From the IMG/VR virus record IMGVR_UViG_3300029286_003693, positions 18,731 to 82,730 of that record: a stretch of 64,000 nt of DNA, one strand, 5' to 3'. The notes beneath the pieces were generated by a model, which was not told the origin of the DNA, searched no databases, and saw only the letters and a program-made list of their open reading frames with translations. The stretch's first letter is position 1; the number at the start of each line of letters is the position of its first letter. Source of the DNA: a virus. Made by a program: the position numbers and the translations under genes. Below are positions 1 to 29,297 of this stretch, in pieces.

Positions 1-3000
1 GCGTCGTGAATGAAGGCGATCTGATTTTCAGGAATCCCCAGTTTGACCAGTTCCTTCTTCAGGCCCTCGTATGTATTGAACCCGGTAGACGCGCTTTCGT
101 GCTCAAACATCTCTTCATTGTAAATCGCCAGATCTTCCGGGGCCAACTGAGAGGTTTCATCTTCAGTCTTATACTTGAATTTGTCCGAGTATTTGCCGGG
201 GATCCCCAGGTCTGCGAAGACAAGCTGGACGCCCTTGTGCTTTGCCTCTTCTTGCCACCGCCGATACATGATCTTCGACGCCGTGGCGATCTTTGAATCC
301 TGCTGCATCTCCGTGTTGGCATAGTGGTGATCAAGACGCTGATCGATAGCCACCTTGCTCATATTGGAGATGATCCGGAGCATGTTGTCGGGGACGCCCT
401 CGTATTCGGCATTTTTCGGATCCGCCTCGATTGCGGCACATCGCTCCAGAACGATCTGCTTATAATCCTCGACATACTGGTTGGGCTGCACCTTTACCCG
501 TTGCGGTTCACCCCCACGGATGATCGGCCTTTTGACAGGCGTATCCTTCGCCCGGACGCTATCGACATTCTGATATGCCGTCGCCAGGAGCCGCCCGGCA
601 TTGACGATCCGGCGGTTCGTTGTGATGACCTTGTACTGCCCGCGGGCGCCGTCCCATTCCAACTGTGACCCCATGTCGCCAAAGTTGGCAATCCAGCGGT
701 CGAAAGACCACACCCCTTGCCTCTTTACCTCCTGGGGCTGAAGCATCCGCTGAATGTTGTACATCTCCGCGATGGAGTTCGACAAAGCCGTTCCGGACGC
801 CAGGACGATCCCATCCTTTTTGGGGAACTGGGCATTCAGGTACTGCGTCTTGCGGAAGAAGTCCTTCGCGGTCGGGCTTCCCGTCGGGTTCAAGCCGGTA
901 ATGCGGGTCAGCCGGGTGGCATACGGGATGTTCTTGTATTTGTGGGCTTCGTCCACGATCATGAGGTCGATCCCCAGGTCGTCGAAGAAAAGGTTCTTTC
1001 TCTTCGCTTCGTCATGGACACCCGGCGCACTGAGCTTCGCCTCCAAGGCGTGAATTTGGACCTGGATGTCCTGCTCCAGAATTCGCGCCCCCTCCTTCTT
1101 GGCCTCTTCGAGAATTTCCCGCAGCTCCAGGAGCTCCTCTTCGATGAACACCCGCTCCGACTCCGGCGACAGGCCGATCCGGTCAAGGTCCTGCTGCCTC
1201 ATGATCGCTATGTCGAAATCATTCAGGGCGATCTTCTGAAGCGACCGCTGCTTGCGCTGTTCATTGGTAGAAACGCGCACAGGCAAGATGTTTGCCATCG
1301 GGTAGAGGTTCTTGATTTCCTGAACCGCCTGCCCCATAGTGGAATCATTTAGGGTGACGTAAAGAACCTTTTTCTTGCCCCGAAGCCTTTTCGCCTCCAT
1401 GGCGATCAGGGCCATTGTCACAGTCTTGCCCGTCCCGACTTCATGCCCCAGATACAGGTTCCCGTTTTTCAAGTATTTCCATGCCGCATTCATCTGATGC
1501 GGGTAAAACGTCAGCGCGTCAGTGACCCCAAGGGCTTCCTTTTCTTTTGGCGTCAACATCCACATTCCCTTGCCCGGGAAGGTAAGGTGGGAGCCGTCTG
1601 CATTCATGGGAACGGAGGTATTGATCAGATCATTGAAACGCTTGACGGCCTCATCCGACCGTCCTGCTTCAGCAAACAGCCATCGCCCAAATTCCGACTG
1701 GATGTCCTGGAGCTTTACTTCGGCGGCCTGGGTCGCAACCTCGTCAAGGTACTGTTTTCTATCGACGGTAAAGGTGACTTGCGGACGCTTCCCCATCAAG
1801 GCGCACTTCATGAGCTCAAAGAAATCCATGCGCTGGGTGCCCCACACCGTCGTCGCCTCAACGCTCCGCTTTGCCGCGGCTATCTGCCGCTGCACTTCGG
1901 CCTTATTTTCTCCAACCCCCTTGCCGCGTCCCCGGTAATGCTCTTCCCCGCCGAACGACATGGACCACTCGTTGCTTACCGGGCTGAAATTAAAGATTGC
2001 ATGGAGACCGTGCCTCAGTGCCATCTTGTCTCGTACAAACTCCGCCAGGTGCGCGGGGTCAATCCACGACGCGCCGATGCGCGCGGTGATTCTGTGCTGG
2101 GAAATCTCCGCCGGCTGCGCCGCCTCAAGCAGTGCCACGTTGCGGGCATATTCAGGGCTGGACGCCACCATCTCCCGGGCGACGGTCAGCTTCCGCTTCA
2201 CGTTGCCGGACAGGTATTCGTCTATCGTTTCAAGGAAGCCGGTTTCGGGGTTTTCGACGATCTTGTCGGCAACCCCGGCCCTGACAGAATCGACATCCGA
2301 GCTCCGCAGCCTCGCCATGTATTCGAGGTTGGGATACCCGAATTCGTCGAGGGCCATCGCCAGGGCGTCATGATCGGTGTCCGCCCTGTCAGGCCGGGCG
2401 GCAAAAGCTGTTATGTTTTTGGTGAATATGTCCGCAAGCTTGGTGACTTTATTTGTGTCTGGGTCGTGCTCTTCCAGTGCCAAAACCCACGCGGAATCCG
2501 TATAGTCAACATACACGCCACGGTTCTTGGGATCGTTGACCGGGCCGAACTTCTTAACAAACAGGTCGTACCACTTTTTGAGTTTGACCTGCTCTTCCTT
2601 GATGACCTTGGCGTCCGTCTCGGTCTTTTGCGCCCTCAGCAATGTCCGGATTTGATCCAGAACACGAACATAGAGGCGTACAACCTCGGCCTTTTTCTGT
2701 TCGCTGGCCGTTGCGACAGGCAGTTTTAATTCCTCGGAATCTTCCTTGACACAAACCTCGCCCTTATCATTGATGTATGCTCCCCCCTCTTTGATGGTTC
2801 CGGGCGCGGAGATAATGTCATCGATCGACTTGGCTTCCTTGACGGCCTCCCGCTCGACGATCTTGTCCGGGAATGCGGCGGCAAGCCTTTCCAGGTTGGA
2901 CTGCAAATCGCCCTCGGGAGCTACCCGAAGCCCCTCGTTCCCATACCTGCCGGTGATTTTTTCCAGTTTTCCCGCAACCATCTCCGGGTGCTTGAGGAAA

Positions 3001-6000
3001 TAATTATTGATGGTCAACCCGGTTGATTCGTCTGTCCCCGCGGTCGTCCATTCCTCGGCGGGGACTCCCACGAACTTCCCCCCCTCGATATTCTTGCGGA
3101 ACACCAGGATATCGGTCGCTACTTGCGTGGCGCTGTAAATCCCGGAAGGAAGCCGGATCGCCCCCACGAGTTGAGCCTTCCCCGCGAATTCTGTCAGGTG
3201 GGCGCCGACGGCATCCAGGGTATTTGAAGTGGTGATCATCATGCTCAACGCGCCCGGTGCGGTCAGGTTGAGCATCTTGTTGATGAAATAGTTATGGAGC
3301 CGATACCCGCCCTTGTTGTGTTTCAGATCCGAAGGGGAGAAATTCTCGAACGGGACATTGGTGATGGTCAGATCGAACCGATTGTTTGGTTTCTTCACGT
3401 CCTGGAATGACTTGGTTTCGATGGAGGCCAGCCCGTAGAGTTGCGTTGCAATGCGGGCGCTCACCCCGTCCATTTCGATCCCCTGCAACGCCGTCCCCTG
3501 GGCGAGGTCGCTCGGCATGGTCCCCAGAAAGAGACCGTTCGCTCCAGTGGCAGGATCAAGCACGACACCATTCGTGAAACCAAGGCGCTGCGCCAGCTTC
3601 CACATAAATGTGCCAACGGGTACGGGGGTATAGTAGGCTGATGTTGAAGACGACGCTGCGTCACGGACCTCGTCATCGTTGAGTTCCGCCTTGAGCAGTT
3701 CGGCCTTGCCCGCCCATGCCGCGGTGGGTTCGTAGGCAAACAGCTCCGACATGCCGCCCCAGCCGCTATACTGAGCCAGGATATCTTTTTCAGCATCCGT
3801 CGGAGTGCGGTTTTCAGATTCTACGAGGTTGAGTACTTTGACAGCAGATAAATTCAGGCCGAACCGAACGGGTACTGATTTCGGATCGTTTAAGGTGAGA
3901 TCGGTTATTCGGTAGTTTCCGGCGGGAGAAGGATGTACTCCTTCAGTACTATCTCCTTCGACGCTTCCATCTGCGCCCCTCTGCTTACCAGATTCCCGAG
4001 TTCCAGGCAAGCCGCTTCCGCCGCTGCCTCGGTCTCCTGATCGAACGTCCCCTCCTTCATTAGGGCTGCTGTCAGGGCGGGCAGGTACTTCTTCCAGTGC
4101 CTCTGTGCCATCCTCTTGAATACCAACATCGATGCCACCCCTTTCTTTGGCAATATAAACCGGGTTTTCACCCTCATACTGGATGTTTGACAGCTTATAG
4201 TCTAATATATCATCGGGATGGAGCTGTGTCAAGTAGGCGACCGCCCCCGTTCCGTTCTGCCCTTCCGATGTATATCCCTTATCATGACCAGCATACCCGT
4301 CCGGCTGCATCATCGGTCCGAAAGATGTATCGTCATAGCGATACCAGTAATAGCCGTCCTTGGATGGTTCGGACGCCCAGATCGCCGTATATCGCGCCTC
4401 TACTTGGTCCAGAAGGTATCTCAACTGGAGCTGAAGCATCAATTCATTGGCTTTTTCGATGGAGATGTAATCATCCTTGAGGGACGGCTTTCCGGATTCA
4501 TCCCACACCAGACCATTAAGGAGATGCTTGATGGTCGCATTGAACGTCTCGCGCTCCTTCCCCGCGGGATAAACCAGTCTTGTCCCGACGCCGGCCTTGC
4601 CACCTACCCTGCCGGCGGCGACGAAATCGTTGACCAGGTAATTGTTCTTGCCTTGCAATGTATCGTAGATGTATGCCTCGAATGCCCTTGCCCACATCTC
4701 TTGCGCCCGTGCGGTATAGTCAGGGTCCATCTGCTGCGCGGTGCTGTAATAATCAGTGTCTTTCCTGACCGTATCCTCAAATCTGCTGGTAACTTCGTTC
4801 TTTACTGCCTCGATCCGCTGCTGCTTTTTCGACGACACCATCCGCTTGAGAAACATGGAATCCTTCGCAAGCAGGTCGTCAATCAGGCGGGTCCCAGCCT
4901 CGAAGTCATAGACATGGTGGAATGTATTGACAACTTTTTCTATTTCGGTTTTTGCATCCTCAGCGGCCAGGTCCTGCAATCCATGCCCCCATTCGTGAGC
5001 CATGGTCCCGTCGCCATTATCACGGGTGAAATTGATCGTTTGGACAGTGGGGAAGTATGCCGCCGCCGCGCCCTTCGCCTTGTGTCCCAGGTTGGCAAAC
5101 TGCACGGCAAGTTCACCGCCCAGGCTCATGCCGTTATCGGGTGCGCCGATAGTCGCGGCCAGATCCTTGAAGGCATCATACGCTGCTGGGATGACGCGGT
5201 TACGCTCCTCCTGGTTGATCCACCCCTCTTCTCCGAAGCCGACGCCCTTGAATCCGAACGGAGCCTGAAAGTCCTCCGTCTTTTTCAGTTCAACGCCCTC
5301 CCGGTAATCGGACAAGCCGGAGCGAACCACTGTCTTGTTGCGCCCGCGCTTGTTGATGTCGATCTCCGACAGCAGGATATCGTTCTCGTCGGCAAGGAGG
5401 CTCTGCCAGGAGTCAGTCAGGAAATTGTAAAGAGAATTGGGCCGCTGGACATAATCACGGGTACTCAGAAGGCCGGAGAGGCGTGTTCTCGCTTCCGAAT
5501 AATCGGGAAATGTTCCATCTTCTTTTCGGGCTCCGAACAGCACGGTCTCCTGTAACCGACCGATGATATTCGTGATGCTGGTCTGCCCGTTAAAAACATC
5601 CACGACCGGCTGCATGGTCTTCCCATACTCAGTTGCCCACTGCTTGAGCATGTCGATAGATCCGCCGCGATAATTGAGCCAGTGCTCGATCTTATCGTCT
5701 ATGCTCTTCCCCGATGAGTAACGCAGCCGATCCCGGCTCTCGGTAAGGTATTCCTTGAACGTCAAGAAATACTTCTGAATTTGCGTCATCAGGCGCACAG
5801 TCCCAGGGGTCGCTTCTTCTGCGAAAGCGGCTGTCCATATCTTCCCAGGGACCATCTCGTCGAGGATGATCTTCGCCGCGGACTTGGGCGTTTTATCCTT
5901 TGTCTTCTGGTTCAGCTTCTCGGGATCATAGACATAGCCGACGTTCTTGAACTCGCCCATCGCGGACTTCCGGGCCTTCTTTTCGGCGGCCGCCTCTTCC

Positions 6001-9000
6001 TTAGCTTTTTTCTCCGCCTTCTCCTGCTCGGTCAACTTCCGGCGCGTCCGGGCTCCCCCCTCACCTTCCCCGGTGTTTTCGTCGAGGTTGATCACTTCAC
6101 CATCTTCCGCTATGTCTTCCGGAAGGATATTTCCTTCGTGCCTTACAGACCCCACACCCTCCCATGAGTATTTCCAGCCTCCTTCCGGGATAGACACCGT
6201 CCCGCTTTCTTCCCATTCCGGGTGCTCGCTTGCAGCCTTGTTCCATGCGGCGTTCCGAGATTGCTGATCTGCTTTAACGGGTTCGTCCATAGACGCCCGG
6301 TCATATCTGAGAGAAGATTCCGGCACACTCACTCTGAGGACAACAGGCTCCCCCCCGTGCTCGTCAACAGCCTCTTTTGCATAGTATTGGGCAAGCTCTC
6401 TCGTTTTTGCGAGGTAAGGGTTATTCAACCCGTTCTTCCTTATGTCATCTAATAGTTTAGAACTCGTCCCGTGATAGGCTTCGCGGATGGGGTGATCTAT
6501 CTCTTTTTTATCCCTCTTTTCCTGAATGAACTGCTTGATGTAAGGCCGGATCGCATCGCCGAATTGTTTCACAATGGTGGCGGCAAATTCCCGGAGCCCC
6601 TTGCCGACCTGGATGAAGTGCTCCAGCGCCGCCTCGAAATGGGGCTTCGCTTTTGCGTAGGTGTCCTCATCAAACCCGCCGGGGAAAGACTTCAGGGACG
6701 ACCCGCCGAAAAGTTCATAAAGACCCTTCAGGGCTTCTCCTGCACCCTCGATACCTTCCTTGGCAACGTCGGCCAGGATATCATCGAGGGCCTTGGCTGG
6801 TTTTGCCGAGGGGATCTTTCCCGCAGCGCGATCCCTGGCGGCAGCAAATATGTTCTTGACAGCTTCGTTTGTCGTCTTTGGGGCGGTTTCTTTCTTTTCC
6901 GGCATGTCAAGCATGGCGTCGAGGTCTTCATCGGAAATCTCGGAGATCTCCTTCATGATGTCGGCCTTGGCGGCTTCTGGTTTCGTCAATTCTGTCAGTT
7001 CGGGATATTTGTCGAGTATGGCCTGTCGTGCTTTTGGATCATCGCCGGGGGCAGCATCGAGGTCGGATAGAAATCTCTTGGCATCCTCCAATGAAAAATT
7101 TTCAGCCTGCGAAACCTTGTCCGCACCCTCCAATAGGGCTGTGCGCTTTTTCTGGTATTCAAATTCTGCTTCTCGCGCATTCTGCGCCCTGAGCCGGTCG
7201 CTTATTTCGGCCTGTTCGTTGCCAGAAGCGGTGCTCTCTTTTTCCTCCTTCGGCCCCCTCTTCCCGCCCGTGCCAGCGGCTTTGATCTTTTCCGGGGCCT
7301 TGGCCTCTTCCGTGGCCTTCCCCTCGAACATCTCTTTCGCGAGGCCGGGGTAAAATTCTCTGATGCGTGCCTGCAGGTTCGGAATCCTCTCCCGTAAGGA
7401 TTTTATTTCTTTCTCGATTTCTTTGATCCGGCCCGTCAGGTCAGCGTAAGTCGGGGTCTTCCCGAACCATGAATCTCTCCATGCTTCAGTACCCGCCGAT
7501 TCTTTACTTGCGGCTGCCTTTGCATCCTCCCCGAGCTGCTTCAGGGTGATCTCTTTGGCATCAACCTTGCGCTGGATCTCGTAGTAGCGTTCGAGACGGG
7601 CCTGGGCAGCTTCGATCTCTGCCGGGACCCCTTCATACCGGGTCTTGAACTCATTCCTTTTCGTCCAGTAATCAGCGACCTCCGCCTCTGCCTCCTTGGT
7701 GATCAGATCCGTGGACTTGCCCACAGGTTTGCCGGAGTGCTGCGGGAGTTTATTCAGCGCCGCCGTTACCTTCATTCCCGCCACTTTCTTTTTGAACTTC
7801 TCCAGGTTCTCTTTCGTGTTCAATATCCTGAACTTTCCGTCCATGGGAACATCGATGATGACGTGGATGGGTCCGGCGTCCTCGGTCTTGTTGTTCTCGT
7901 AAGCGGTCCGGGCAGCTATGGCCTCGTCAAGGTGTTCGAGCAGATACTTCTTGATGATCCGGGACTTACCCTCTTCCTCCTTGGACTTTACCTCTGCCGC
8001 GGTAGGAACTGGCTTTGCTGCCTTCCCAGCTTCGGGGGCCTTGACGATTTCCGGTTTCGGGCCTCTCGCGCCGCCGGTACCAGCCGCTTTGATCTCCGCG
8101 GGTTGCTGAGAAAGACCGGGATGTCTCTCCTCCTGCTCTCCCTTCAGTAGGTTTTTCCAATGTGGTTCCGCTGCGTCTATGTCCGCAATCAGAGACATTA
8201 ACCTCTGTCCCAGCGCCTTGTCTTTTTCAGTTACCCGCTTCAGAATGTCGCTCTTCTCTGCCGGCCTGAGCGTGCTATACCCGCGTGAGCCTAAGCCGCC
8301 GCCACCTTTCCCGATCGAATGCTTGAGGCCAGCTTTCCGTTCGATAGATGCAAATTCTTCTTGATATTGAGAAATCAGCGATCTGCCCTCGTCGGCAGAC
8401 TTTGCGTTCTTCATCCTTTCCGCATAAGACGGTACCGTCTCCGTGATTACGGGTGCCGGTCCTCTTGCGCCGCCCGTGCCCGCGGCTTTGATCTCGGTGG
8501 ATTGCTCTTTCTCGAACTTTGCCAATTCTGCCAAGGCGGCTTTCCCTTTGGGGTCGTCTGCTTTTGTACGGCTCCTTATTATGTCAATGCCGGCTTTGAT
8601 CGCCTCGGCTCGCGTATCGTATTGCGTGCCGTCGATACCTGGGGCATTTCCGCTCCCCTCGTAGTCGCCATATTTTTTCGAGATATTGACGCCAATGCGG
8701 AATTTCCCGTCAGGGCCTTCCGCTATGCGGATGCTGCCCTCCCTTCCGGATGACTTACTGAATGGGATTGAGATCTTTTCCGGTTCATTATAGACGCCGT
8801 TATCGTTGATATTATGTCCTGCATCCCGGTATTGTTTGACCTCTTCATCCGATTTTTCTCGTGCCGACTTTGGTGCGGGTGCTTCCTCTCCTTTTACCGA
8901 ATCAATCACTTGTTGCAGTAAAGGCCGCTGCCAACCCTGTTCATTCATACGTCCGTCCGCCAAGGTAGCGATGGCGTCATAGACCGAATCCTGGTCGGCC

Positions 9001-11480
9001 TCAATTCCTTCTGCTTTCAACTTTGCTACGACTTTCCGGGCCAGATCCTCCTGTGCATACTGCCAGGCAATTTCCGCATGGCGGGTGACAATCTGCGATT
9101 CCACCCGAAGATTCCCGATCTCTTCATCGATCTGCTTCTTCCGGGCAACCGCTTCTTTACTGCGGTCCGATTTCAGTACGTCCCGTTCCTTGGCAAGGGC
9201 GTCGATGGTTGGTTTATTCTTGGCCGTAATATCCTCGCTTACCGTATAAAGTTCATCCCAAAGCCCACCCAGGTCCATAGGAGAATAATGTTCGGGAAAC
9301 GTAAAGTCTTCCACCAAATTGCCGGTTGCGATCTGGTTCGCTAAGCCTGTTTCTTGCGCTGCACCTTGGGCCGCGGGCTCTTCGGCGGCCTTCTTATCCA
9401 CGACGGTTTTCTCCAACATCCCGAGCCGATACCGGGCGTAAGCGCTGACAGTATCTTCGCCCCGGTATTCATCAAGGACCGCCGCAGTGCCGCCTTCCGC
9501 GAATAGGCTCGCCACCTTCGTCCGAACGAAAGGCGGGGTCCCGGTTTCCTGGGTGTCCCAGAGATCGAACGTCTTTTTATCCTGGGTCTTGACCTCTTTC
9601 GTGATGTCCAGGATCTTTCCCGGAGTTTCCCCGGTCACATTCAGCGGTCCTCTCGCGCCGCCCGTGCCCGCGATCTTCAATTTTTTGTCGATTTCAGCCA
9701 GCGTCTCGGGGGTGATATCCTCTTCGGTCTGGATGTTGACATCTCCCTCCATCAAGATATCCGTCGCCGTCAGGTTCTTCCGCTTGGCTTTCGGCTCACC
9801 TTCCAGGAGAATGTCCCTCGCAGCGCCCTTGGCTGGCCCCATGGGCTTACTGACCACACCACCCTTCCCGACACCGGCAGTATCGAGAACTTCTTCTGGA
9901 AACCCGAACGTAGTGGCCTTGGCGGCTATTGCATCTGTCAGCCGGTTGAACTCTTTCCGCTGGGGTTCTCTCGCCTTGCCGGTCGAGATGAGTTTCGTCA
10001 GTCCGTAGGCTTTATTGATGTCCGACTGGTAGGCCAAATACTGCTGGTAGAGATCCGGGCTGATGTTTTTTTCCTTGAATTCGTCCCGCAGAGAGGCCCA
10101 TCTTGCGACGTCCTCGCCGGTGGCCTCCTCCGATTTCACCACGGCGTCAAGCTTAAAGTATTCCTTGAACTTACTTGTCATATCGAAGTCTATGCCGCGC
10201 TTTTCCATCTCGGTCGCGAAGGCGTCTCTTGCCGTGGCCAGGGACTTATCCGTTGGTCTTTTATCCGACAATTCCTGGGCGTGCTCGTACATGGCCGGGA
10301 GGAATTCATTGGGGATCGAGTCGAATCTGTTCTCGGCGACAACGTCCTTAACAAGCTGGGCCGATGCCTTCGTGTCCATCTTTTCCTTGACGTGCTCGCC
10401 CGTGAGCGCCGCGCCGCCCATGACCGTAGTGAGCAGGAGGATGTCGGCGAAAACTTCCTTATTGGACTGTCTCAGGTCGTCGAAGCTGGTCCATGAGCGC
10501 TTTGTCGCGCCGGGATTCAGGCCCATCTCCACGTCGATGTTGTGCTGCCACTGCTGGGTCCAGGTCTCCGTGGTCTGCTCGGTCGCCTGTTCTGCCAACA
10601 TCTTTCCGGCAGCCCCCGCACCGTATTTGTCGAGGGCCTTCCCGATAGTCGTCTTCGCGAGCTGCTTGCCGAAGGCATTCTTGGCCGCTCCGAAAAACAG
10701 CTCGAATCCGATCAGGTTCCCGATGGCTTCCGGGATTGCTTCAGAGATGCCCTGCTCGATCAGGGATCCCTCATTTTTGTCATAGGCTGTCTTCCATTCT
10801 TCCGGGGTCAGAACCCGACCAGCCGTTTTCATGCTGGTTTCATTGAGTTTATCGTAAAGGTCTTTCGTTGAGTTATCCTTCTGCATCCGGTACGCAGCTC
10901 CACCCGATGCCGCCATGCCTGCCGCCCGACCCGCGACAAACGAGCCCACGGGGCTGGTAGGCGCCGCTGCAGTTGCTGCTGCTACGCCCGCACCGAGGCC
11001 GGCGCCTGCGCTTACCACCGAAAATGCCGCCTGCTGGGGAAATCTCGTGATCGTCCCCGTGGTGATGTCGTCAGGAAGGCCGAGTTTCGTGAGCGGTGCG
11101 ATGACCACCTTGTTATCGGCGTATTTCTTCTGGAAATCCTCGGCGTCCTTGTTGGCCCTGTCGATGATCCTCGTCAGGAAAGAGTCTTTGTCGGCCACAG
11201 CCTCTCGTGATCCGCCCCGGATCGCGCTCGCGGTTGCCCCGGCAATCTGCAAGGGGGTTCTGATCACCGCCTCGCCGACCGCGCCGACAGTCTCGGCGAT
11301 CTCCCCCGGTGACGCCAGCTCGTAGCGGGCCGGGGCCGCTGGTGCCTGCTTTACCTCTGCCGGTTTTGAGACAGCGTCATAGAAATCCTTCGAGACAGGA
11401 GAAGGAATATCCTTCGTGATGTCATCGTAGAAGGACTGGGACAGCGACAGTGGACTTCTTGCGGACGGATTCAGCTCCAT
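1..11480 (-). CDS. Giant DarB-like polyvalent protein (>3,800 aa, 3'-truncated by window edge): ART-like, LPD1/zincin, N6-adenine methyltransferase and SNF2-type helicase domains
   Basis: ATG at 11480. Segments translated by hand (1-60, 3841-4260, 4980-5340, 6000-6540) are open in one frame, and the ORF track lists no stop-terminated ORF in it. Motifs: YHGT (6465-6476), HEWGH (4983-4997), YSGWGG, VLDPATG and NVPF (about 3340-3780), GHEVGTGKT (about 1420-1450), DEAH (about 940-955), GIPENQIAFIHD at the edge. Confidence 0.9.
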   Translation of the reverse strand, partial: MELNPSARSPLSLSQSFYDDITKDIPSPVSKDFYDAVSKPAEVKQAPAAPARYELASPGEIAETVGAVGEAVIRTPLQIAGATASAIRGGSREAVADKDSFLTRIIDRANKDAEDFQKKYADNKVVIAPLTKLGLPDDITTGTITRFPQQAAFSVVSAGAGLGAGVAAATAAAPTSPVGSFVAGRAAGMAASGGAAYRMQKDNSTKDLYDKLNETSMKTAGRVLTPEEWKTAYDKNEGSLIEQGISEAIPEAIGNLIGFELFFGAAKNAFGKQLAKTTIGKALDKYGAGAAGKMLAEQATEQTTETWTQQWQHNIDVEMGLNPGATKRSWTSFDDLRQSNKEVFADILLLTTVMGGAALTGEHVKEKMDTKASAQLVKDVVAENRFDSIPNEFLPAMYEHAQELSDKRPTDKSLATARDAFATEMEKRGIDFDMTSKFKEYFKLDAVVKSEEATGEDVARWASLRDEFKEKNISPDLYQQYLAYQSDINKAYGLTKLISTGKAREPQRKEFNRLTDAIAAKATTFGFPEEVLDTAGVGKGGVVSKPMGPAKGAARDILLEGEPKAKRKNLTATDILMEGDVNIQTEEDITPETLAEIDKKLKIAGTGGARGPLNVTGETPGKILDITKEVKTQDKKTFDLWDTQETGTPPFVRTKVASLFAEGGTAAVLDEYRGEDTVSAYARYRLGMLEKTVVDKKAAEEPAAQGAAQETGLANQIATGNLVEDFTFPEHYSPMDLGGLWDELYTVSEDITAKNKPTIDALAKERDVLKSDRSKEAVARKKQIDEEIGNLRVESQIVTRHAEIAWQYAQEDLARKVVAKLKAEGIEADQDSVYDAIATLADGRMNEQGWQRPLLQQVIDSVKGEEAPAPKSAREKSDEEVKQYRDAGHNINDNGVYNEPEKISIPFSKSSGREGSIRIAEGPDGKFRIGVNISKKYGDYEGSGNAPGIDGTQYDTRAEAIKAGIDIIRSRTKADDPKGKAALAELAKFEKEQSTEIKAAGTGGARGPAPVITETVPSYAERMKNAKSADEGRSLISQYQEEFASIERKAGLKHSIGKGGGGLGSRGYSTLRPAEKSDILKRVTEKDKALGQRLMSLIADIDAAEPHWKNLLKGEQEERHPGLSQQPAEIKAAGTGGARGPKPEIVKAPEAGKAAKPVPTAAEVKSKEEEGKSRIIKKYLLEHLDEAIAARTAYENNKTEDAGPIHVIIDVPMDGKFRILNTKENLEKFKKKVAGMKVTAALNKLPQHSGKPVGKSTDLITKEAEAEVADYWTKRNEFKTRYEGVPAEIEAAQARLERYYEIQRKVDAKEITLKQLGEDAKAAASKESAGTEAWRDSWFGKTPTYADLTGRIKEIEKEIKSLRERIPNLQARIREFYPGLAKEMFEGKATEEAKAPEKIKAAGTGGKRGPKEEKESTASGNEQAEISDRLRAQNAREAEFEYQKKRTALLEGADKVSQAENFSLEDAKRFLSDLDAAPGDDPKARQAILDKYPELTELTKPEAAKADIMKEISEISDEDLDAMLDMPEKKETAPKTTNEAVKNIFAAARDRAAGKIPSAKPAKALDDILADVAKEGIEGAGEALKGLYELFGGSSLKSFPGGFDEDTYAKAKPHFEAALEHFIQVGKGLREFAATIVKQFGDAIRPYIKQFIQEKRDKKEIDHPIREAYHGTSSKLLDDIRKNGLNNPYLAKTRELAQYYAKEAVDEHGGEPVVLRVSVPESSLRYDRASMDEPVKADQQSRNAAWNKAASEHPEWEESGTVSIPEGGWKYSWEGVGSVRHEGNILPEDIAEDGEVINLDENTGEGEGGARTRRKLTEQEKAEKKAKEEAAAEKKARKSAMGEFKNVGYVYDPEKLNQKTKDKTPKSAAKIILDEMVPGKIWTAAFAEEATPGTVRLMTQIQKYFLTFKEYLTESRDRLRYSSGKSIDDKIEHWLNYRGGSIDMLKQWATEYGKTMQPVVDVFNGQTSITNIIGRLQETVLFGARKEDGTFPDYSEARTRLSGLLSTRDYVQRPNSLYNFLTDSWQSLLADENDILLSEIDINKRGRNKTVVRSGLSDYREGVELKKTEDFQAPFGFKGVGFGEEGWINQEERNRVIPAAYDAFKDLAATIGAPDNGMSLGGELAVQFANLGHKAKGAAAAYFPTVQTINFTRDNGDGTMAHEWGHGLQDLAAEDAKTEIEKVVNTFHHVYDFEAGTRLIDDLLAKDSMFLKRMVSSKKQQRIEAVKNEVTSRFEDTVRKDTDYYSTAQQMDPDYTARAQEMWARAFEAYIYDTLQGKNNYLVNDFVAAGRVGGKAGVGTRLVYPAGKERETFNATIKHLLNGLVWDESGKPSLKDDYISIEKANELMLQLQLRYLLDQVEARYTAIWASEPSKDGYYWYRYDDTSFGPMMQPDGYAGHDKGYTSEGQNGTGAVAYLTQLHPDDILDYKLSNIQYEGENPVYIAKERGGIDVGIQEDGTEALEEVPARPDSSPNEGGDVRSGDRGSGGSGLPGTRESGKQRGADGSVEGDSTEGVHPSPAGNYRITDLTLNDPKSVPVRFGLNLSAVKVLNLVESENRTPTDAEKDILAQYSGWGGMSELFAYEPTAAWAGKAELLKAELNDDEVRDAASSSTSAYYTPVPVGTFMWKLAQRLGFTNGVVLDPATGANGLFLGTMPSDLAQGTALQGIEMDGVSARIATQLYGLASIETKSFQDVKKPNNRFDLTITNVPFENFSPSDLKHNKGGYRLHNYFINKMLNLTAPGALSMMITTSNTLDAVGAHLTEFAGKAQLVGAIRLPSGIYSATQVATDILVFRKNIEGGKFVGVPAEEWTTAGTDESTGLTINNYFLKHPEMVAGKLEKITGRYGNEGLRVAPEGDLQSNLERLAAAFPDKIVEREAVKEAKSIDDIISAPGTIKEGGAYINDKGEVCVKEDSEELKLPVATASEQKKAEVVRLYVRVLDQIRTLLRAQKTETDAKVIKEEQVKLKKWYDLFVKKFGPVNDPKNRGVYVDYTDSAWVLALEEHDPDTNKVTKLADIFTKNITAFAARPDRADTDHDALAMALDEFGYPNLEYMARLRSSDVDSVRAGVADKIVENPETGFLETIDEYLSGNVKRKLTVAREMVASSPEYARNVALLEAAQPAEISQHRITARIGASWIDPAHLAEFVRDKMALRHGLHAIFNFSPVSNEWSMSFGGEEHYRGRGKGVGENKAEVQRQIAAAKRSVEATTVWGTQRMDFFELMKCALMGKRPQVTFTVDRKQYLDEVATQAAEVKLQDIQSEFGRWLFAEAGRSDEAVKRFNDLINTSVPMNADGSHLTFPGKGMWMLTPKEKEALGVTDALTFYPHQMNAAWKYLKNGNLYLGHEVGTGKTVTMALIAMEAKRLRGKKKVLYVTLNDSTMGQAVQEIKNLYPMANILPVRVSTNEQRKQRSLQKIALNDFDIAIMRQQDLDRIGLSPESERVFIEEELLELREILEEAKKEGARILEQDIQVQIHALEAKLSAPGVHDEAKRKNLFFDDLGIDLMIVDEAHKYKNIPYATRLTRITGLNPTGSPTAKDFFRKTQYLNAQFPKKDGIVLASGTALSNSIAEMYNIQRMLQPQEVKRQGVWSFDRWIANFGDMGSQLEWDGARGQYKVITTNRRIVNAGRLLATAYQNVDSVRAKDTPVKRPIIRGGEPQRVKVQPNQYVEDYKQIVLERCAAIEADPKNAEYEGVPDNMLRIISNMSKVAIDQRLDHHYANTEMQQDSKIATASKIMYRRWQEEAKHKGVQLVFADLGIPGKYSDKFKYKTEDETSQLAPEDLAIYNEEMFEHESASTGFNTYEGLKKELVKLGIPENQIAFIHD
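3905..4129 (-). CDS. Small TnpV-like protein nested in an alternative frame within the giant gene
   Basis: 74 aa MLVFKRMAQRHWKKYLP...SKEIVLKEYILLPPETTE preceded by purine-rich AAAGAAAGGGGGTGG; pattern recalls TnpV-type proteins; lies immediately before the methyltransferase domain. Confidence 0.6.
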   Translation of the reverse strand: MLVFKRMAQRHWKKYLPALTAALMKEGTFDQETEAAAEAACLELGNLVSRGAQMEASKEIVLKEYILLPPETTE

Positions 11481-11511
11481 TTACACTACCTCTTGCCGAT
11501 GTTAATTGGCG

Positions 11512-12624
11512 TTAAAACCCTATGGAAGTAAGCCCCCTTGCTTGCCGGACTGCGACGCGACGTTTCCGTGCCTCCTCGTCGGCATCGGCTTGCTTCTGGA
11601 TCGCGACGGCCCTTGCCGGATCATTCGCCTGCGCTACCTGCGCTGGGGTATTGAAAACCCCCAATGCTCTTTGCCCCATCGCACTCGGGGACATCAGGTT
11701 TGATGTCAGGGGTCCTCGCTCGGCGACCGTAGCCCCCACGATCGGAGAACCAGGGAATGGATTCGGTCCACCCAGGGGGTTGTCACGGTTATGCCGGTCC
11801 ACGACTTCCATTTCTGGCCTTACTGGTGGAGCCTGGGCGGCGGGCTGAACCTGCGAGACGAGCGGTCTTACGCCGGGGGCCGGAGTGACGGGCGCTACTC
11901 CCGCCGCCGGAGTAGCTGCGGCCCCTGGGTTCAGGAGCGCCAGTGCCGCCTGTCTGGTGTCAGCGGGAAGGGCATTCAAATAGTTCCGTGCTGCGTCAGG
12001 GGTCCCAGCCTTTTCGTGTTCTCTGAGAACCCCGACAGCGAATTCCGCTTCGCCGGCCACATTCCTGCTCTGGGGCGTTGCGGCTGGCCTCGCGAGCCCG
12101 GTTTGCTCCATGAGCGACCTTGCCGCGTTCCCGACCTCTGTTGTCGGCTTGCTCGTTTTCGTAACCCCGTCAACGCCCGTTTGGCTGACCTCCTGTGCGT
12201 GCCCGAGGATCGTGCCCAGGGTCGTCAAGTATGCCTTGGTCGTCTCGGTCTCGGCATTGAGTTTCGTCTTGTTCGTCTCGGTGTCGGCGCTGAGCTTCGC
12301 CCTGCTGTTTGCGCCTTCCTCCATGATCTTCTGTTTGTCTTTCGCGTCGAGCCCTTCAAGGCGCTTCTGATCAAGCATCCCGCTATTTTTGAGCGTCTGA
12401 AGATCATAATCGCCCTTGATCGCGGTCGTCAGCTTTTCCTTCTCCCATTTCAGTTTGTCCTTGTCTCCCGTGATCTGAGCTTCGAGTTTCCGGTACTCAA
12501 GATCCGTCTTATTCGCCTCATTCTTTTCTTCGAGCGACATGGCCCGTTTGCTCATCTCCATGTTGAAGGCCATCTTCTGCTCGAACAGCGGCATCAGTTT
12601 TCCTAAAATGTCATCGAAGTTCAT
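11512..12624 (-). CDS. Putative internal virion/ejection protein
   Basis: 370 aa, coiled-coil N-half and Pro/Ala-rich C-half, GGAGG RBS, directly upstream of the giant gene. Confidence 0.6.
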   Translation of the reverse strand: MNFDDILGKLMPLFEQKMAFNMEMSKRAMSLEEKNEANKTDLEYRKLEAQITGDKDKLKWEKEKLTTAIKGDYDLQTLKNSGMLDQKRLEGLDAKDKQKIMEEGANSRAKLSADTETNKTKLNAETETTKAYLTTLGTILGHAQEVSQTGVDGVTKTSKPTTEVGNAARSLMEQTGLARPAATPQSRNVAGEAEFAVGVLREHEKAGTPDAARNYLNALPADTRQAALALLNPGAAATPAAGVAPVTPAPGVRPLVSQVQPAAQAPPVRPEMEVVDRHNRDNPLGGPNPFPGSPIVGATVAERGPLTSNLMSPSAMGQRALGVFNTPAQVAQANDPARAVAIQKQADADEEARKRRVAVRQARGLTSIGF

Positions 12625-12642
12625 GGTCGCGCCTCCTATCGG

Positions 12643-14025
12643 TTACGGTTTATAAAACGACATTGGTAAAATCAGCATTTTCGGATTGACCACGTATGCC
12701 TGATTGGATGGGGTCTCCTTCTCCATCTTCTCGCGGGCGATCAGGTCCTCCATCTCTTTCCACTTGAAGTTCCCCTTCGTCTGATCCAGGAATCGGTCAA
12801 GATCGTTGATCCGCAAGATCGACACGCGGTCCCCCACGCGGTACTCGTAAAAATCAGAGGCTGAGACGCAGACCTCCACCCCTCTTACAACGCACCTATA
12901 AGCCAGCCCGAACGAACCTTCGGGGGGTTGTAGGATCTCCGTGACGACCCCGGATGTATAGTGGTTGGTCTCGAACCAGTTGCCCGAGTAGAGGAGGGGG
13001 GATGTTTTCTGGAACCACCACACATGGGCTGGCCACGGCTTTGCCAGCAGTCCAATGAACTCGCCCGGCAGCGGCCACTTTGCGTCCCGGCGCAGGTAGT
13101 ATCGAAACGAATGGAACGGGAGTATCTTGTCGTACCCCGCAAACGGCTCCGCGGGGTATTCGGCATCACGGCTCTCTATGAGATAGCCCTTGTTGACGAG
13201 ATGCACCCCCGGACAATCTCCCTTTACGTCCGTCATGGGGGACATGAGCCCATCGAGAGGCTGGTCCGTTACGCATTTCCACCCTTCCGGGTTTTCAATC
13301 CTTACTGTTCCGTCCGGGGTGAAAGGGACCTCGTTCGTCAGCATGTCGTCCATGCTTTCGGAGAAGACGGACAGGACCTCCATGACACCCAGCGGCCCCA
13401 CGGGAAACGACAAGAGCCCGCTATAAAGCTGTCCCAGGCTTGCTTCCGATTTACTTTTGACGCCTTCCTCGACCGATGCTTTCGGACCCTTAGACGGGAA
13501 CTCGGTATTGCGGTTGAGCATCCACGTCTCAAACCGCATCTCCCGGATGACCGGGGGAGCATGATCCGCATCAAAGCCGGTTCGCATCTCATGCGCGTTG
13601 AAATAGGCATGGATGTCTTCGTAGCTCTGGAGGCTCTTTAATGGTTTGATGTTGTCGAGCCGGGTCAGATACTTTGCAAGGAAGCCGAGGATCTTCTCCG
13701 CGTTTCCCTGATAGTTCTCCCCTCGGAACGGGAGGATCGATGCACCGATGGCCAGATACCAGATGTCGGACGCGACCGGGAGGGAGAGCTTCACGTCGTA
13801 CCCGGTATCCGGGCCGGTTCGGGTTCGGTCCCCAACATCCATGACCAACAACCGGCTGAAATCATACTCGGGCAAGACCGCAGCAAACATATCATGGAGG
13901 CGTCTCTGCATCCCCTGGCCGGGAGACCCCACCGCGGAGCCGACCTGGTTCCCTGCAAGTGTGCGCTCACGGGTGCTCCGCTTCGCGAGTTCCTGTATTC
14001 GCTCTTGAACTTCCGTTAAATCCAT
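12643..14025 (-). CDS. Hypothetical phage virion-module protein
   Basis: Probable start MDLTEV at 14025 overlapping the upstream stop (TAATG); 460 aa. Confidence 0.7.
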   Translation of the reverse strand: MDLTEVQERIQELAKRSTRERTLAGNQVGSAVGSPGQGMQRRLHDMFAAVLPEYDFSRLLVMDVGDRTRTGPDTGYDVKLSLPVASDIWYLAIGASILPFRGENYQGNAEKILGFLAKYLTRLDNIKPLKSLQSYEDIHAYFNAHEMRTGFDADHAPPVIREMRFETWMLNRNTEFPSKGPKASVEEGVKSKSEASLGQLYSGLLSFPVGPLGVMEVLSVFSESMDDMLTNEVPFTPDGTVRIENPEGWKCVTDQPLDGLMSPMTDVKGDCPGVHLVNKGYLIESRDAEYPAEPFAGYDKILPFHSFRYYLRRDAKWPLPGEFIGLLAKPWPAHVWWFQKTSPLLYSGNWFETNHYTSGVVTEILQPPEGSFGLAYRCVVRGVEVCVSASDFYEYRVGDRVSILRINDLDRFLDQTKGNFKWKEMEDLIAREKMEKETPSNQAYVVNPKMLILPMSFYKP

Positions 14026-15629
14026 TACTTGGCTGCCCCTATCTGGTGCGTCAGGGTATTCACGATATTCGCCTTTCTCATGATCTCTGCCGCCTTTTCC
14101 GCTCCGGCGATCTTCTCCGCATTTGCCCATACACGAGCCTCGTCGTAAGCCGCTCTGTTGTCTGCATTCTTCTCGATCATGTTCGCTTCAATGATATGGT
14201 TGGCCGTTTCCAGGGCCGTGATGGCGTCCGACGTTTTCGCCTTTTCGTCGTAACTCAGGTGACGGTTTTCGTACTCGGCAACAGCGTGCTGATTCCTCAT
14301 CTCCTGGCTTGCGAGATCGGCGTTCTTCTCACCCTCGATGGCCTGTGCGAGTTTCGGGATCGTATCGGTAATCTCGACTTCGGCGGCTTCAATCCGCTGA
14401 TCGATAAGGGGGCCTTTCTCTTTCAGGAGTTCTGTTTCCTGGGCATAGGCGGTGGTCTCGGCCTGGGCGACCGCAAGCTCCGACTCGACAAGGGACTCGG
14501 CTTCTTTTTGGGCCTTCAGCCGGGCGGTGTCCGCCTCTGTCTGTGCCACCCTGATAGGGACCTCCGCAGTGTCCAGGGCAATCCTACCGATGTCTGCCTC
14601 CAAGCCAGTCTTGCGGACATCGACCTCCTGGCAGTCGAAATCGAGGCGGCCAATATCGGATTCCAGCATGGTCTTCTTGACTTCAACCTCGCTGATATCG
14701 AAGTCGGTACGAACGATGTCAGATTCAAGCAGGATCTTTTTGACATCGACTTCCGCGGTGTCCAAGCCCAGCCGGCTGATATCCGAATTCAAACCCGCCT
14801 TTTTGATATCAACTTCCGCCGTTTCCAGCTCAAGGCGGTCAATGTCTGAATCCAACCCCGCCAACTGAACGTCCACTTCTGCGGTATCGAATTCAATGCG
14901 TCCAATGTCTGACTGGAGTGTAGCCTTCCGGGCCTCTACCTCCGCGATGTCCAGGGTAATCCGGCCAATATCGGCTTCCAGTTCTGTTTTCCGGACGCCA
15001 ACAGCGGCCAGTCTGTAGGCGGCATCTGCAATCTGCGCCTGGATCTCCAGCGCCCGGATGCCGGTCTCGATGACATCGAGTTCGGCCTTCTGCGTGATCA
15101 ACTGCTGTCGGGTGATCTCGGCTTCGACATGGGCACTGTCCAGCGTCTGCTCCTCTATCTTTGCCTCCAACTCCTTGATAAGGGTGTTGGCCTTGCTCTG
15201 GGCCACTTCAAGTTCCGTGATCTTGGTTGCGAGCGCCTGCCGGTCAGACTCCAGGGCCTCAATCTTCGCATCGACTTCAGATACTTTCTGCGCAACCTTT
15301 CGTTCCTGATTGGCCAACGCCGCATCCTTCGCGGCAAGGCTCTGATCTTCGATGTATCGTTTCGCTGTGATATCGATAACCGAGCGCCGCTCGTCGGCAG
15401 TCAATTCCGCCATGGCCTGGTCGTAAGCAAGAACCATTTGTGCGAGGGTCTCGTAGGTGATCTCTTTTAGGTAGTTGTACCCGTGAAGGTACGCCCCGGA
15501 ATAGACCCCAAAGACAACAGCCCGGTCTGAAATATGCATGGCCAGTAACCCAGGGACTTGATATTGAAAGGCAGGCCATATCGACCGACCCCGAACCAAA
15601 CCTCTATCCAGCACAGCCTGTACCGTCAT
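14025..15629 (-). CDS. Coiled-coil virion protein with seven 21-aa repeats
   Basis: 534 aa; repeat DIxRxxxDxAEVDVxKxxLES; AAGGAG RBS. Confidence 0.75.
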   Translation of the reverse strand: MTVQAVLDRGLVRGRSIWPAFQYQVPGLLAMHISDRAVVFGVYSGAYLHGYNYLKEITYETLAQMVLAYDQAMAELTADERRSVIDITAKRYIEDQSLAAKDAALANQERKVAQKVSEVDAKIEALESDRQALATKITELEVAQSKANTLIKELEAKIEEQTLDSAHVEAEITRQQLITQKAELDVIETGIRALEIQAQIADAAYRLAAVGVRKTELEADIGRITLDIAEVEARKATLQSDIGRIEFDTAEVDVQLAGLDSDIDRLELETAEVDIKKAGLNSDISRLGLDTAEVDVKKILLESDIVRTDFDISEVEVKKTMLESDIGRLDFDCQEVDVRKTGLEADIGRIALDTAEVPIRVAQTEADTARLKAQKEAESLVESELAVAQAETTAYAQETELLKEKGPLIDQRIEAAEVEITDTIPKLAQAIEGEKNADLASQEMRNQHAVAEYENRHLSYDEKAKTSDAITALETANHIIEANMIEKNADNRAAYDEARVWANAEKIAGAEKAAEIMRKANIVNTLTHQIGAAK

Positions 15630-15641
15630 CTCGATTCTCCT

Positions 15642-17291
15642 TTACGCAAGCAAGTGGATCAGCTTCTCGGTTATTTCCGCGCTTGCCGTCGCATTCGCCA
15701 TCGCAATGCTATGTTCCCTGTCGGCAGCAGCCATCCTTCTTACTGCGGATGTCTGGCTGGCCAATTCGCTCGCCTGAGCGGCATACCGGGCTGCCTCAAC
15801 AACCTCAAGCTGTGACTTTTTGAGAGCCACCTCATTTGACCCCTGCGTGGTGATATAGACAATTTCCGCTGCCGACTCGGCAGTCATCGCCGTCTGGATC
15901 TCTCCGAGCTGGGGACGGAGAGCATCGACAACAGCCAGTCTCGCCTCTGCTCTTCTAAGCTCCAGAACTGCTCGATCTCTCTCGATGATGATTTTCTGCC
16001 CTTCCAGGGTTAATTCCTTGCCCATGAGCGCGAGTTCTTCGTTAAGCCTGATCACCTTCTCCTCAGCCAGTTTCACCTTCTCGACAGCAAGGAGTCGGTG
16101 ATTTTCGAGTTGTGCCGTCATCTCCGCGGCAAGTTCGATGTTGGCCTGCGCCTTGAGAAGCAGGGGGTTGAAGAGGGTGCTTAGTTCCCCAGTCAGGGTT
16201 TCGATCGCGGCGGACTTGCGGGTCATGGGGTCCAGGAGTTCGGTCTGCTTGTTTGTCAGCAGCATGGTCTTGTCTGCTCTGCGGGTCATGGGCTCCAGCA
16301 ATTCAGTCTGTTTCGCCGTAAGTTCGGAAGTTTTGTTGGCCTTTCTGGTCATTGGGTCGAGCAGTTCATACTCCTTCGCAGTCAGGGTTTCCGTCGCGGC
16401 GACCTTCTGGCTCATTGGATCGAGGAGTTCGCGCTGTTTGGTTGTCAACGCGGTCATCGCTGCGGCCTTGTCAGCCATCGGTGGCAGCAACTCGGCCCGC
16501 TTCCCGGTCAGAGCCAGGGTCTTTTCCGCTTTCTCGATCGTGGGGTCCAGCAGTTCGGTCTGTTCCACGGTGAGGGCCGCCGTGGCCGTGGCCTTGGCCT
16601 CCATCAGGGGAAGGATCTCGGCAGTCGTCAGATCCGAGACCTGCTTGTCATAATTCGCCTTCTCTTCCCGAGCGGGCATGATGATCGATTCTTCTGTGTC
16701 GAGTGCGGCACTTTGCGCTGCCAGGGCTGCCAGGATGTAGGGGATCACATCAAGTTTCCGACGAGCCGCCGCCAGTTTTGCCGTCGCCAACTGCTCTTCC
16801 AGCGGGAGAGGAAGAAGCTCGACCTCTTCCTTCTGCCGTTTTATGTCTTCAATCTGAAGCTCGATAGCGACCTTGGACACGAGCACGGCTATTTCCCGGA
16901 ACTCCTGATCGATCATCAGTCCGTCGATTTCTTCTCCCCGGAGCGACCGGATCAACTCCTTGTCGGCAAATTCCGTTTGCAGATCCGCAAAGAGCTGCAT
17001 CTTTTCGAGTTCCCACGCAATCGTAGCCTGTTTCAGGGCGATGTCATTCTCCAGACCAAGGGCCTTCAGCTCGCGGTCGATCGCATCGCTCATGATCTTC
17101 TGGTTGTACTCCGTCAGCTTAATCTTGCTGTCGATCTCGACATCCGTGAAAGCCTCGATTGCAAAACCCGGCAGTGATGAGAAATTCCGGGAGGCGACGG
17201 CGGACAGGATCGCCGCAGTGTTCTTTTTGAATTCCCGGAAGACCTCGCCCTTTCCCTTGTACCAAAGGCTGTTTTCCGTCGCGGTTCCCAT
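15642..17291 (-). CDS. Coiled-coil virion protein with 7-8 21-aa repeats
   Basis: 549 aa; repeat ELLDPMxxKAxxTxxLTxKQT. Confidence 0.75.
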   Translation of the reverse strand: MGTATENSLWYKGKGEVFREFKKNTAAILSAVASRNFSSLPGFAIEAFTDVEIDSKIKLTEYNQKIMSDAIDRELKALGLENDIALKQATIAWELEKMQLFADLQTEFADKELIRSLRGEEIDGLMIDQEFREIAVLVSKVAIELQIEDIKRQKEEVELLPLPLEEQLATAKLAAARRKLDVIPYILAALAAQSAALDTEESIIMPAREEKANYDKQVSDLTTAEILPLMEAKATATAALTVEQTELLDPTIEKAEKTLALTGKRAELLPPMADKAAAMTALTTKQRELLDPMSQKVAATETLTAKEYELLDPMTRKANKTSELTAKQTELLEPMTRRADKTMLLTNKQTELLDPMTRKSAAIETLTGELSTLFNPLLLKAQANIELAAEMTAQLENHRLLAVEKVKLAEEKVIRLNEELALMGKELTLEGQKIIIERDRAVLELRRAEARLAVVDALRPQLGEIQTAMTAESAAEIVYITTQGSNEVALKKSQLEVVEAARYAAQASELASQTSAVRRMAAADREHSIAMANATASAEITEKLIHLLA

Positions 17292-17295
17292 ATTC

Positions 17296-17838
17296 TTACC
17301 TCGTCAATACGACTGGGAAGAGTTCCACCTGCCCCAGCTCGTCAAAATCGGCCACCAGGAAAGTCCATTTATTCCCTACCAATGTCCGTGGAAATATCAC
17401 CTTGGAATGCAGAATAGGGATGCTGGCCCCTACTCCGCCGACCTCGCCCCGGACCACCGGCGCTGCCCCCTCGACATCGAAGAATCCCGCCCGGAAGCGT
17501 TTCCGGTTATTCGTCCCGAACATGGACGGGGAAAGAATGACGCCGCTGTGAATCGCCGCCCCGGCGTCCGTTGTCCCATCCAGGACGTAGATCCCCTCTT
17601 CCCGTGCCGCATAAGTCACCCCGTCCTCAACGGCATAGGAATTGAACGCAAAACCGCTGTAAACGGACGGCTCGAAGGTCTGCCCGTTGAACGCCCACGC
17701 CTCCCACACATCGCCGCTGACCGCGCTCAGATCCTCCAGGGACAGAACATCGGGGATCATGGAATGAAGAATGCTCTTCAGAATCGCCTCGTCTGCGGGA
17801 GTCAAGAAAGAGATCAGGGTTTCGTTGATTACTAACAT
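17296..17838 (-). CDS. Hypothetical phage tail-module protein
   Basis: 180 aa ORF tightly packed in the late operon, AGGTG RBS. Confidence 0.7.
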   Translation of the reverse strand: MLVINETLISFLTPADEAILKSILHSMIPDVLSLEDLSAVSGDVWEAWAFNGQTFEPSVYSGFAFNSYAVEDGVTYAAREEGIYVLDGTTDAGAAIHSGVILSPSMFGTNNRKRFRAGFFDVEGAAPVVRGEVGGVGASIPILHSKVIFPRTLVGNKWTFLVADFDELGQVELFPVVLTR

Positions 17839-17845
17839 GCGTCAC

Positions 17846-20271: not shown

Positions 20272-20273
20272 AA

Positions 20274-24856: not shown

Positions 24857-24869
24857 ATTTCCTTAAATA

Positions 24870-25076: not shown

Positions 25077-25086
25077 ATCTTCCTCG

Positions 25087-26700: not shown

Positions 26701-26713
26701 AATGATAACCTTC

Positions 26714-28109: not shown

Positions 28110-28110
28110 T

Positions 28111-28329: not shown

Positions 28330-28338
28330 CCGTCACTC

Positions 28339-29124: not shown

Positions 29125-29125
29125 C

Positions 29126-29287: not shown

Positions 29288-29297
29288 GTTCGCGCTC

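Follow-up and report, generated by a model that had tools for sequence, protein, structure and literature searches.

A repeated tag in a giant polyvalent protein

The stretch of DNA analysed here, hereafter the window, comprises 64,000 nt of viral sequence (positions 18731-82730 of the 82,730-bp provirus record IMGVR_UViG_3300029286_003693) and holds the first part of a gene for a giant polyvalent protein. In this protein a 13-residue peptide, which we call the tag, recurs four times with the consensus (K/E)(L/I)K(I/A)AGTGG(A/K)RGP. The tag lies in linkers, is conserved at the level of the peptide, is restricted to one protein family, and bounds the exchange of cassettes between relatives. On these comparative grounds module shuffling at the tag is supported, and cleavage at the tag is plausible. 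The gene runs on the minus strand (record positions 10690-30210, 6,506 aa in total) and extends leftwards out of the window, whose part of it (3..11480, minus strand) covers aa 1-3826, as given by translation of the open reading frame (ORF) and by PHROG and Pfam matches.

All four tag copies are encoded on the minus strand. Copy 1 (KLKIAGTGGARGP, aa 600-612, window 9645..9683, 43.8 bits with the tag profile) stands at the end of a conserved N-terminal domain A; copy 2 (EIKAAGTGGARGP, aa 996-1008, window 8457..8495, 44.1 bits) lies between cassettes B and C; copy 3 (again EIKAAGTGGARGP, aa 1129-1141, window 8058..8096, 39.5 bits) lies between cassettes C and D; and copy 4 (KIKAAGTGGKRGP, aa 1398-1410, window 7251..7289, 37.4 bits) marks the border between cassette D and the constant body of the protein. 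A preliminary description, made from the sequence alone, had reported four such peptides. They do exist, though on the minus strand, plus-strand translation giving unrelated peptides, and the intervals reported for them are exact at their low ends and 3-6 nt short at their high ends. No fifth copy was found in the six frames of the 82.7-kb record by either pattern or profile, the best other score being 2.1 bits. The repetition is well beyond chance: AGTGG occurs four times in the giant, while the commonest 5-mer in 200 shuffles occurred twice (183 shuffles) or three times (17) and never four times.

Conservation of the tag at the peptide level

Compared pairwise, the four window copies are identical at 25-30 of 36 nt, with a longest exact run of 8-18 nt, so that their codons do differ at synonymous sites, as the preliminary description had it. 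Each of the 12 homologs found with aa 540-1460 also has the tag, in 1-6 copies at differing positions. A degenerate DNA pattern, searched against viral contigs (2.9 million), 185,579 species genomes and metagenomes, gave 8 loci on 5 of the viral contigs, 6 in the species genomes and 8 in the metagenomes. The loci that fall in long ORFs belong to relatives, and the metagenome-assembled genomes (MAGs) involved are labelled Syntrophus, Syntrophorhabdus and Dehalococcoidia. One locus in a Deltaproteobacteria MAG (L011) has tag words in an unrelated context and was set aside; five others, in Oleiphilaceae and Dongiaceae genomes (L015, L016) and in metagenomes (L017, L019, L020), were rejected as chance-like matches in short or Arg-rich ORFs.

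The 57 distinct instances were reduced to 51 by dropping those more than 80% alike; the 51 still include L011, which is probably unrelated. Their core can be written as P-x-E-I-K-A-A-G-T-G-G-(A/K)-R-G-P. Counts per 51 are 40 for I, 43 for K, 44 for the first A, 49 for the A at -1, 47 for A/K, 48 for R at +5, 33 for the following G and 42 for P at +7; GTGG is fixed by the search pattern itself. On either side the sequence varies, with an abundance of E, K, P, A and T. Synonymous-codon entropy, computed over 26 instances, is 1.65-1.89 bits for A, A, G, T, G and G, against a background of 1.81-1.93 bits. Synonymous codons are thus nearly as free as in the background while the residues are fixed, which argues for selection on the peptide, the very interpretation that the preliminary description had put forward.

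The same variation bears on the possibility of a DNA-level site, whether a shufflon, some other site-specific recombination site or a recoding signal; this was rejected because the copies are direct repeats with varying synonymous sites. The Arg codon of the tag has a bias of its own, unique among the invariant residues: of 25 instances, 15 use AGA, a codon with a share of 14% in the background of the gene, and 4 use AGG, with a background share of 19%; the result is a purine-rich AGAGG stretch. This could reflect shared ancestry or an effect at the mRNA level.

The tag in predicted linkers

An AlphaFold2 model of aa 581-1420 (840 residues) was built from a 13-sequence alignment, with a mean predicted local distance difference test score (pLDDT) of 66. 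All four tag copies fall in coil that scores below 50 in pLDDT and is flanked by confidently modelled domains, helical or alpha+beta; the low-scoring coil around copies 1 to 4 spans model residues 22-46, 417-434, 540-593 and 808-840. Since coil segments of this kind make up 263 of the 840 residues, the chance that four of four copies would fall in them is about 0.01. Further low-confidence linkers, at model residues 94-129, 617-637 and 649-685, have no tag. The tag is thus a conserved short motif in predicted flexible linkers at domain borders, the arrangement expected of a viral polyprotein cleavage site, and it is not found inside folded domains. Placement in folded domains and homolog indels not bounded by the motif are two of the three findings by which the preliminary description would have had its proposal refuted, and neither is what we see.

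Foldseek of the 840-residue model against PDB found no match at E 0.001 or better, and VIA-align recovered only generic coiled-coil hairpins (Z 8.6 or less) at model residues 671-800, the rest being barely covered. PDB sequence searches with cassettes B, C and D likewise gave nothing credible.

Cassette exchange at the tag

Maps of 21 sequences share a common plan: domain A, then one to five cassettes, then a constant body that runs from modules E and F through the zincin-like domain onward. Domain A (aa 1-599, window 9684..11480, minus strand) is the most conserved N-terminal part, with 69-85% identity in 9 homologs, and has no Pfam family. In the giant it is followed by three cassettes, all on the minus strand: B (aa 613-995, window 8496..9644), with sub-modules B1, B2 and B3, which are helical and alpha+beta in the model; C (aa 1009-1128, window 8097..8456), which is helical in the model; and D (aa 1142-1397, window 7290..8057), modelled with a long coiled-coil hairpin. 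Relatives may have B1, B2 and B3 in another order or with further tag copies between them, and in some the same holds for B3 and C. In the giant, P0006 and P0007 cassette D has a tag copy at either end; P0004 has no cassette D. Throughout the 21 maps, tag copies occur exclusively between modules.

The combinations found across the tag are varied. Clustering of the 130-aa flanks around 57 instances from 22 sequences showed one left-flank cluster (cluster 4) joined across the tag to six different right-flank clusters, and two right-flank clusters each preceded by five different left clusters. The clearest replacement is seen between the giant and L027. Protein identity persists through copy 2, is absent over cassette C and returns at copy 3, the intervening stretch being 133 aa in the giant and an unrelated 214-aa cassette in L027; at the DNA level, the break points lie at the outer edges of copies 2 and 3. 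In P0004, compared at the protein level, the left flank of copy 3 is fused to the copy-4 right flank, with cassette D missing. When all sequences were compared in pairs, 23% of the 492 ends of homology fell no more than 25 aa from a tag copy, against 9% expected. These cases amount to module replacement bounded by a motif, of the kind known from polymorphic toxins. The preliminary description had suggested that the tag separates otherwise unrelated segments and forms homology joints for module shuffling, and it had proposed looking among relatives for module gain or loss bounded by the motif; the maps, the flank combinations, the L027 exchange and the P0004 loss support the shuffling.

Distribution of the tag and related linker motifs

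A tag profile built from 26 instances, run against 1,835,955,588 representative proteins, gave at least 6 matches at E 0.001 or better, all of them members or fragments of the giant's family; the count is a lower bound because full-length tag-bearing homologs are missing from the list. A tblastn search with aa 561-1460 against 50,697 phage records gave no match.

We also scanned 44 proteins that share the zincin region with a looser pattern that catches short forms as well. A short form lacking the GG(A/K) triplet, EIK(A/Q)AGT(N/G/T/A)RP(T/K), was found in P0020, P0021 and P0023, and also at the joint of B3 and C in P0004 (aa 983-992) and L018 (aa 835-849), a position occupied elsewhere by the long form. 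All 9 giant-family proteins have the long or the short tag, as do 7 of 15 further relatives. Among the latter it follows zincin identity, being found in 6 of 7 at 73% or more and in 1 of 8 at 68% or less; the tagless exception in the former group, P0025, begins with V and seems to be truncated on the 5' side. None of 20 more distant LPD1 proteins has either form. The proteins with a long or short tag form one clade on the zincin-domain tree, and all tag copies are N-terminal of the zincin.

Downstream of the four copies lies a second junction motif, TGEGEGGARTRRK (aa 1803-1815, window 6036..6074, minus strand), in a low-hydrophobicity linker at the border between an ART-like cassette and module F. 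The preliminary description had counted this GEGGAR sequence, near 6050, as a weaker copy of the tag; since the tag profile does not match it, we class it as a separate motif, with the consensus (E/Q)(N/S)TG(K/E/Q)GE(G/K/R)GAR and basic residues after it. Of the 9 listed giant-family proteins 8 have this motif, none being found in P0005, and it is single in each except P0010, which has two copies, one of them in a GEKGARKK form; P0011 has the GEKGARKK form only. Beyond these, P0031 has three copies, P0034 two, and P0020 and P0021 one each.

Two further observations concern these linkers. The ART-like cassette (aa 1657-1792, window 6105-6512, minus strand) is inserted directly upstream of the GxGAR motif and, of the 21 mapped sequences, just the giant and L025 have it; we take it to be ART-like from its sequence, without a family match. 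In P0020, a protein of a sister lineage whose zincin is 81% identical, the segment aa 418-1252 carries (K/E)AIP(E/A)E about eight times, plus two short-form tags.

The zincin and other candidate readers

The candidate reader of the tag is a zincin-like domain of the same protein (aa 2034-2340, window 4461..5381, minus strand) with LPD1 and the HEWGH motif that the preliminary description had rightly picked out (aa 2162-2166, window 4983-4997). Residues H129, E130, H133 and E235 of the region are invariant in 11 aligned sequences, giving HExxH plus a downstream Glu, and HEW(G/S/A)H is found in most of the 44 homologs of the region. LPD1 matches at E 8e-14 (Pfam), and Atlas clusters of the region also have LPD1. 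NCBIfam CLCA_X matches at E 2.6e-17, with 63 bits against a cut-off of 260; from its name, we presume that this family is linked to the zincin domain of CLCA proteins. CLCA proteins are zincins for which self-cleavage has been proposed (PMC3650047, PMC10669480).

The HEWGH zincin is the sole peptidase-like domain common to all tag proteins whose sequence reaches that part. P0003 and P0014 have tag copies with no HExxH seen, the P0003 sequence ending before the zincin. A second conserved HExxH, HESVH or HESIH at aa 4516 of the giant, is shared by all 8 full-length homologs (P0004-P0011); its region has no Pfam match and only weak Atlas leads to LPD23/MuF_C, with LPD23 assigned to 13-20% of the members of a cluster. 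It was dropped as a reader because it is missing from P0022, which has the tag. Among the virion genes, PHROGs, Pfam and NCBIfam showed no prohead protease or other protease family, nor did the six-frame search, with its best other score of 2.1 bits, show a tag shared with scaffold or capsid as a prohead-protease site would be. An AT-hook has an R-G-R-P core, which is not what we find, the tag core being (A/K)-R-G-P and the short form R-P.

Possible functions of the tag

Fixed in disordered linkers while its codons drift, unique to one family and absent from other phage genes, the tag should have a specific reader. Tentatively, and with somewhat less than even confidence, we propose from these sequence comparisons that it is a processing site cut in cis by the protein's own HEWGH zincin. 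This enzyme is favoured because the JAB domain and HESVH are missing in some tag proteins and the family searches turned up no other protease among the virion genes. The cut, made by a peptidase with sequence specificity and most probably by the zincin, would fall at the tag or next to it, in the head or after ejection, and would free domain A (~65 kDa) and the cassettes (~43, 14 and 30 kDa) from the 566-kDa body. The usual idea is that the enzymes are released; here the products set free would be domain A and the small cassettes only, the tag being absent from the enzymatic body of 5,100 residues. The DNA of the tag may double as an in-frame joint that keeps recombinants functional, because every cassette must have the same tag on both sides; if the tag is processed, its role as a recombination joint is favoured as a consequence of that.

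Several observations weigh against this proposal. The tag is confined to aa 600-1410, in the N-terminal quarter of the giant, and therefore the enzymatic domains would not be freed by it; the borders among the ART, zincin, methylase, helicase, PRTase-like and JAB domains are without it. Several module joints (B1-B2, B2-B3) are tagless, and of 100 recurrent break-point clusters just 17 come within 20 aa of a tag copy. Among shorter proteins we found no free-standing cassette genes; four short matches, on contigs of 7-60 kb, appear to be fragments of the same gene. The zincin itself is poorly modelled, with a mean pLDDT of 41 in AlphaFold, too low for a fold search; its order of secondary-structure elements is compatible with the zincin fold of a three-stranded sheet, an active-site helix and a Glu helix, and it has no PDB sequence match. 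The link between the tag and one zincin clade is confounded by common descent, and most relatives with zincins 56-68% identical have no tag (the 1 of 8 above being the exception). Finally, N4 vRNAP, ArdC and TraC1 have such zincins and are transferred unprocessed, according to passages of the 2017 survey of polyvalent proteins (PMC5512222).

The strongest rival, though we think it unlikely, is that the tag is never cut and instead serves as a docking motif, tethering the giant at several points to the inner capsid, the portal, one of its own domains or a host factor. The disordered context, the selection on the peptide and the family specificity would fit such a motif equally well, and the copy number of 1-6 is as in multivalent tethers. 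The N-terminal confinement of the tag would fit too, since the N-terminal region of N4 vRNAP is described as serving injection (PMC5512222). A tether, however, needs no flanking of each cassette on both sides, no partner gene is tied to the tag, and the tag is absent from all other phage proteins. The composition of the tag also speaks against docking, with a tiny-residue core AAGTGG and one hydrophobic position; such cores are seldom seen in docking motifs but are common in protease sites.

Rather improbable is a tag with no reader at all, in which cassettes simply spread with their linker and a glycine-rich turn makes a good neutral hinge or recombination joint. Swaps are indeed bounded by the tag at the protein level, and in L027 at the DNA level too, and related lineages repeat other linker motifs (xAIPxE in P0020, TGKGEKGARKK in P0031), which would be natural if linkers of any sequence could spread. 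Yet a neutral hinge would drift, whereas 12-13 residues are fixed in 51 instances with unrelated flanks while their synonymous sites are near-randomised, and exact DNA runs of 8-18 nt between copies are a poor substrate for homologous recombination.

Still less probable is a site of covalent modification at the invariant Thr or Arg, for example ADP-ribosylation by the protein's own ART-like domains, or phosphorylation. A-G-T and R are the most constant residues, the short form included, and the giant has both the ART-like cassette and, as we presume from its sequence without a family match, a second C-terminal ART-like stretch; but the cassette is limited to the giant and L025 among the mapped sequences, and no kinase was found. 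Cleavage after Gly-Gly by the RadC-type JAB domain, in the manner of deubiquitinase-like JAB peptidases at a C-terminal GG, is very improbable: the core does read GG then A/K and the giant has a RadC JAB with H-x-H...D, but this domain is absent from P0008 (three perfect tag copies) and P0022 (two perfect copies), short-form copies have no GG, and RadC JAB has been argued, in a passage of Iyer 2017 (PMC5512222), to lack the ubiquitin-tail groove and to act on nucleic acids.

Processing by the zincin can be extended to a junction code, in which one zincin-read tag would be both the cut site that frees injected cassettes and the in-frame joint for trading them, with the long, short and GxGAR motifs as co-evolving variants of specificity. 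We regard this fuller scheme as speculative, and on balance doubtful.

Genomic setting

The giant combines several unrelated effector domains in one polypeptide (Pfam, PHROGs). Its Pfam domains are LPD1 (aa 2249-2323), N6_Mtase, a ResIII/DEAD/SNF2 helicase, Helicase_C and a RadC-type JAB, and its central part is DarB-like antirestriction phrog_10089 (E 9.3e-270, PHROGs). Within aa 1-2100 there are only insignificant matches to families of Pfam, PHROGs and NCBIfam.

The gene ends a same-strand operon in which terminase, two DNA methylase, portal, major head, head-closure and tail-fibre genes stand upstream; an SLT lysin gene comes after it. Packaging and virion genes alongside are the phage-type context of polyvalent proteins, and the giant is probably packed into the phage head. 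The two DNA methyltransferase genes (phrog_67; window 40900-42189 and 42566-43768, minus strand) are located between terminase and portal. The same operon has an SU10-type adaptor gene (window 34355-34993, minus strand; Pfam PF24175, E 8e-10), which points to a podovirus whose connector is SU10/Kuravirus-like. The 6,506 aa of the giant contain just three hydrophobic segments that resemble membrane helices (aa 151-173, 342-361 and 6203-6222), two of them in domain A (window 10398-11030, minus strand), which hints at membrane insertion during ejection. Near the lysis end of the prophage (L002, record 1-18733) are an N6_N4 methylase gene (6778-7755, plus strand) and a gene for a BamHI-like restriction endonuclease (7742-8512, minus strand), and beyond this pair lie host-like two-component genes.

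Comparison with known systems

In viral polyproteins and virion precursors, the proteases of adenovirus, ASFV and poxvirus cut at GG|X or AG|X. The tag resembles these sites as a short tiny-residue motif in flexible linkers at module borders, with a protease-like domain in cis. It differs in that the candidate enzyme is a zincin and not a cysteine protease, the protein is only partly punctuated, and cleavage at the tag is a prediction.

Polymorphic toxins have demarcation motifs, VENN of CdiA and PxxxxDPxGL of Rhs. As with these, a conserved peptide splits a constant part from swappable modules, and replacement is bounded by the motif. Unlike in the toxins, the cassettes are serial and have a tag on both sides, and neither immunity genes nor orphan cassettes were seen; the carrier here is a virion protein, while polymorphic toxins are secreted.

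The closest comparison is with the polyvalent proteins described by Iyer, Burroughs, Anand, de Souza and Aravind (2017, PMC5512222), including P1 DarB/DdrB, as far as the relevant passages describe them. The giant resembles these as a late-operon string of methylase, helicase, ART-like, JAB and LPD1/zincin domains. Zincin autoprocessing and virion packaging were proposed there, and phage P1 DdrB is stated to be processed. The passages on cleavage name no site, and the word 'linker' does not occur in the text, whereas here a precise 13-residue tag is found, limited to the N-terminal cassette array and doubling as an exchange border. In the literature searched, that paper included with its supplements aside, we found neither a cleavage motif nor a junction motif defined for polyvalent proteins.

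Polyvalent proteins have been predicted since 2017 to be cut by zincins with no site defined, and the tag gives four exact conserved positions, a concrete but unproven signal that may mean both 'cut here' and 'swap here'. It shows how phages can swap the N-terminal modules of a 720-kDa injected protein with the reading frame intact. If the cassettes are released, they would be candidates for new early-acting anti-defence proteins, and if the junction code were true, the phage protein would be a self-processing, recombination-ready magazine of early effectors.

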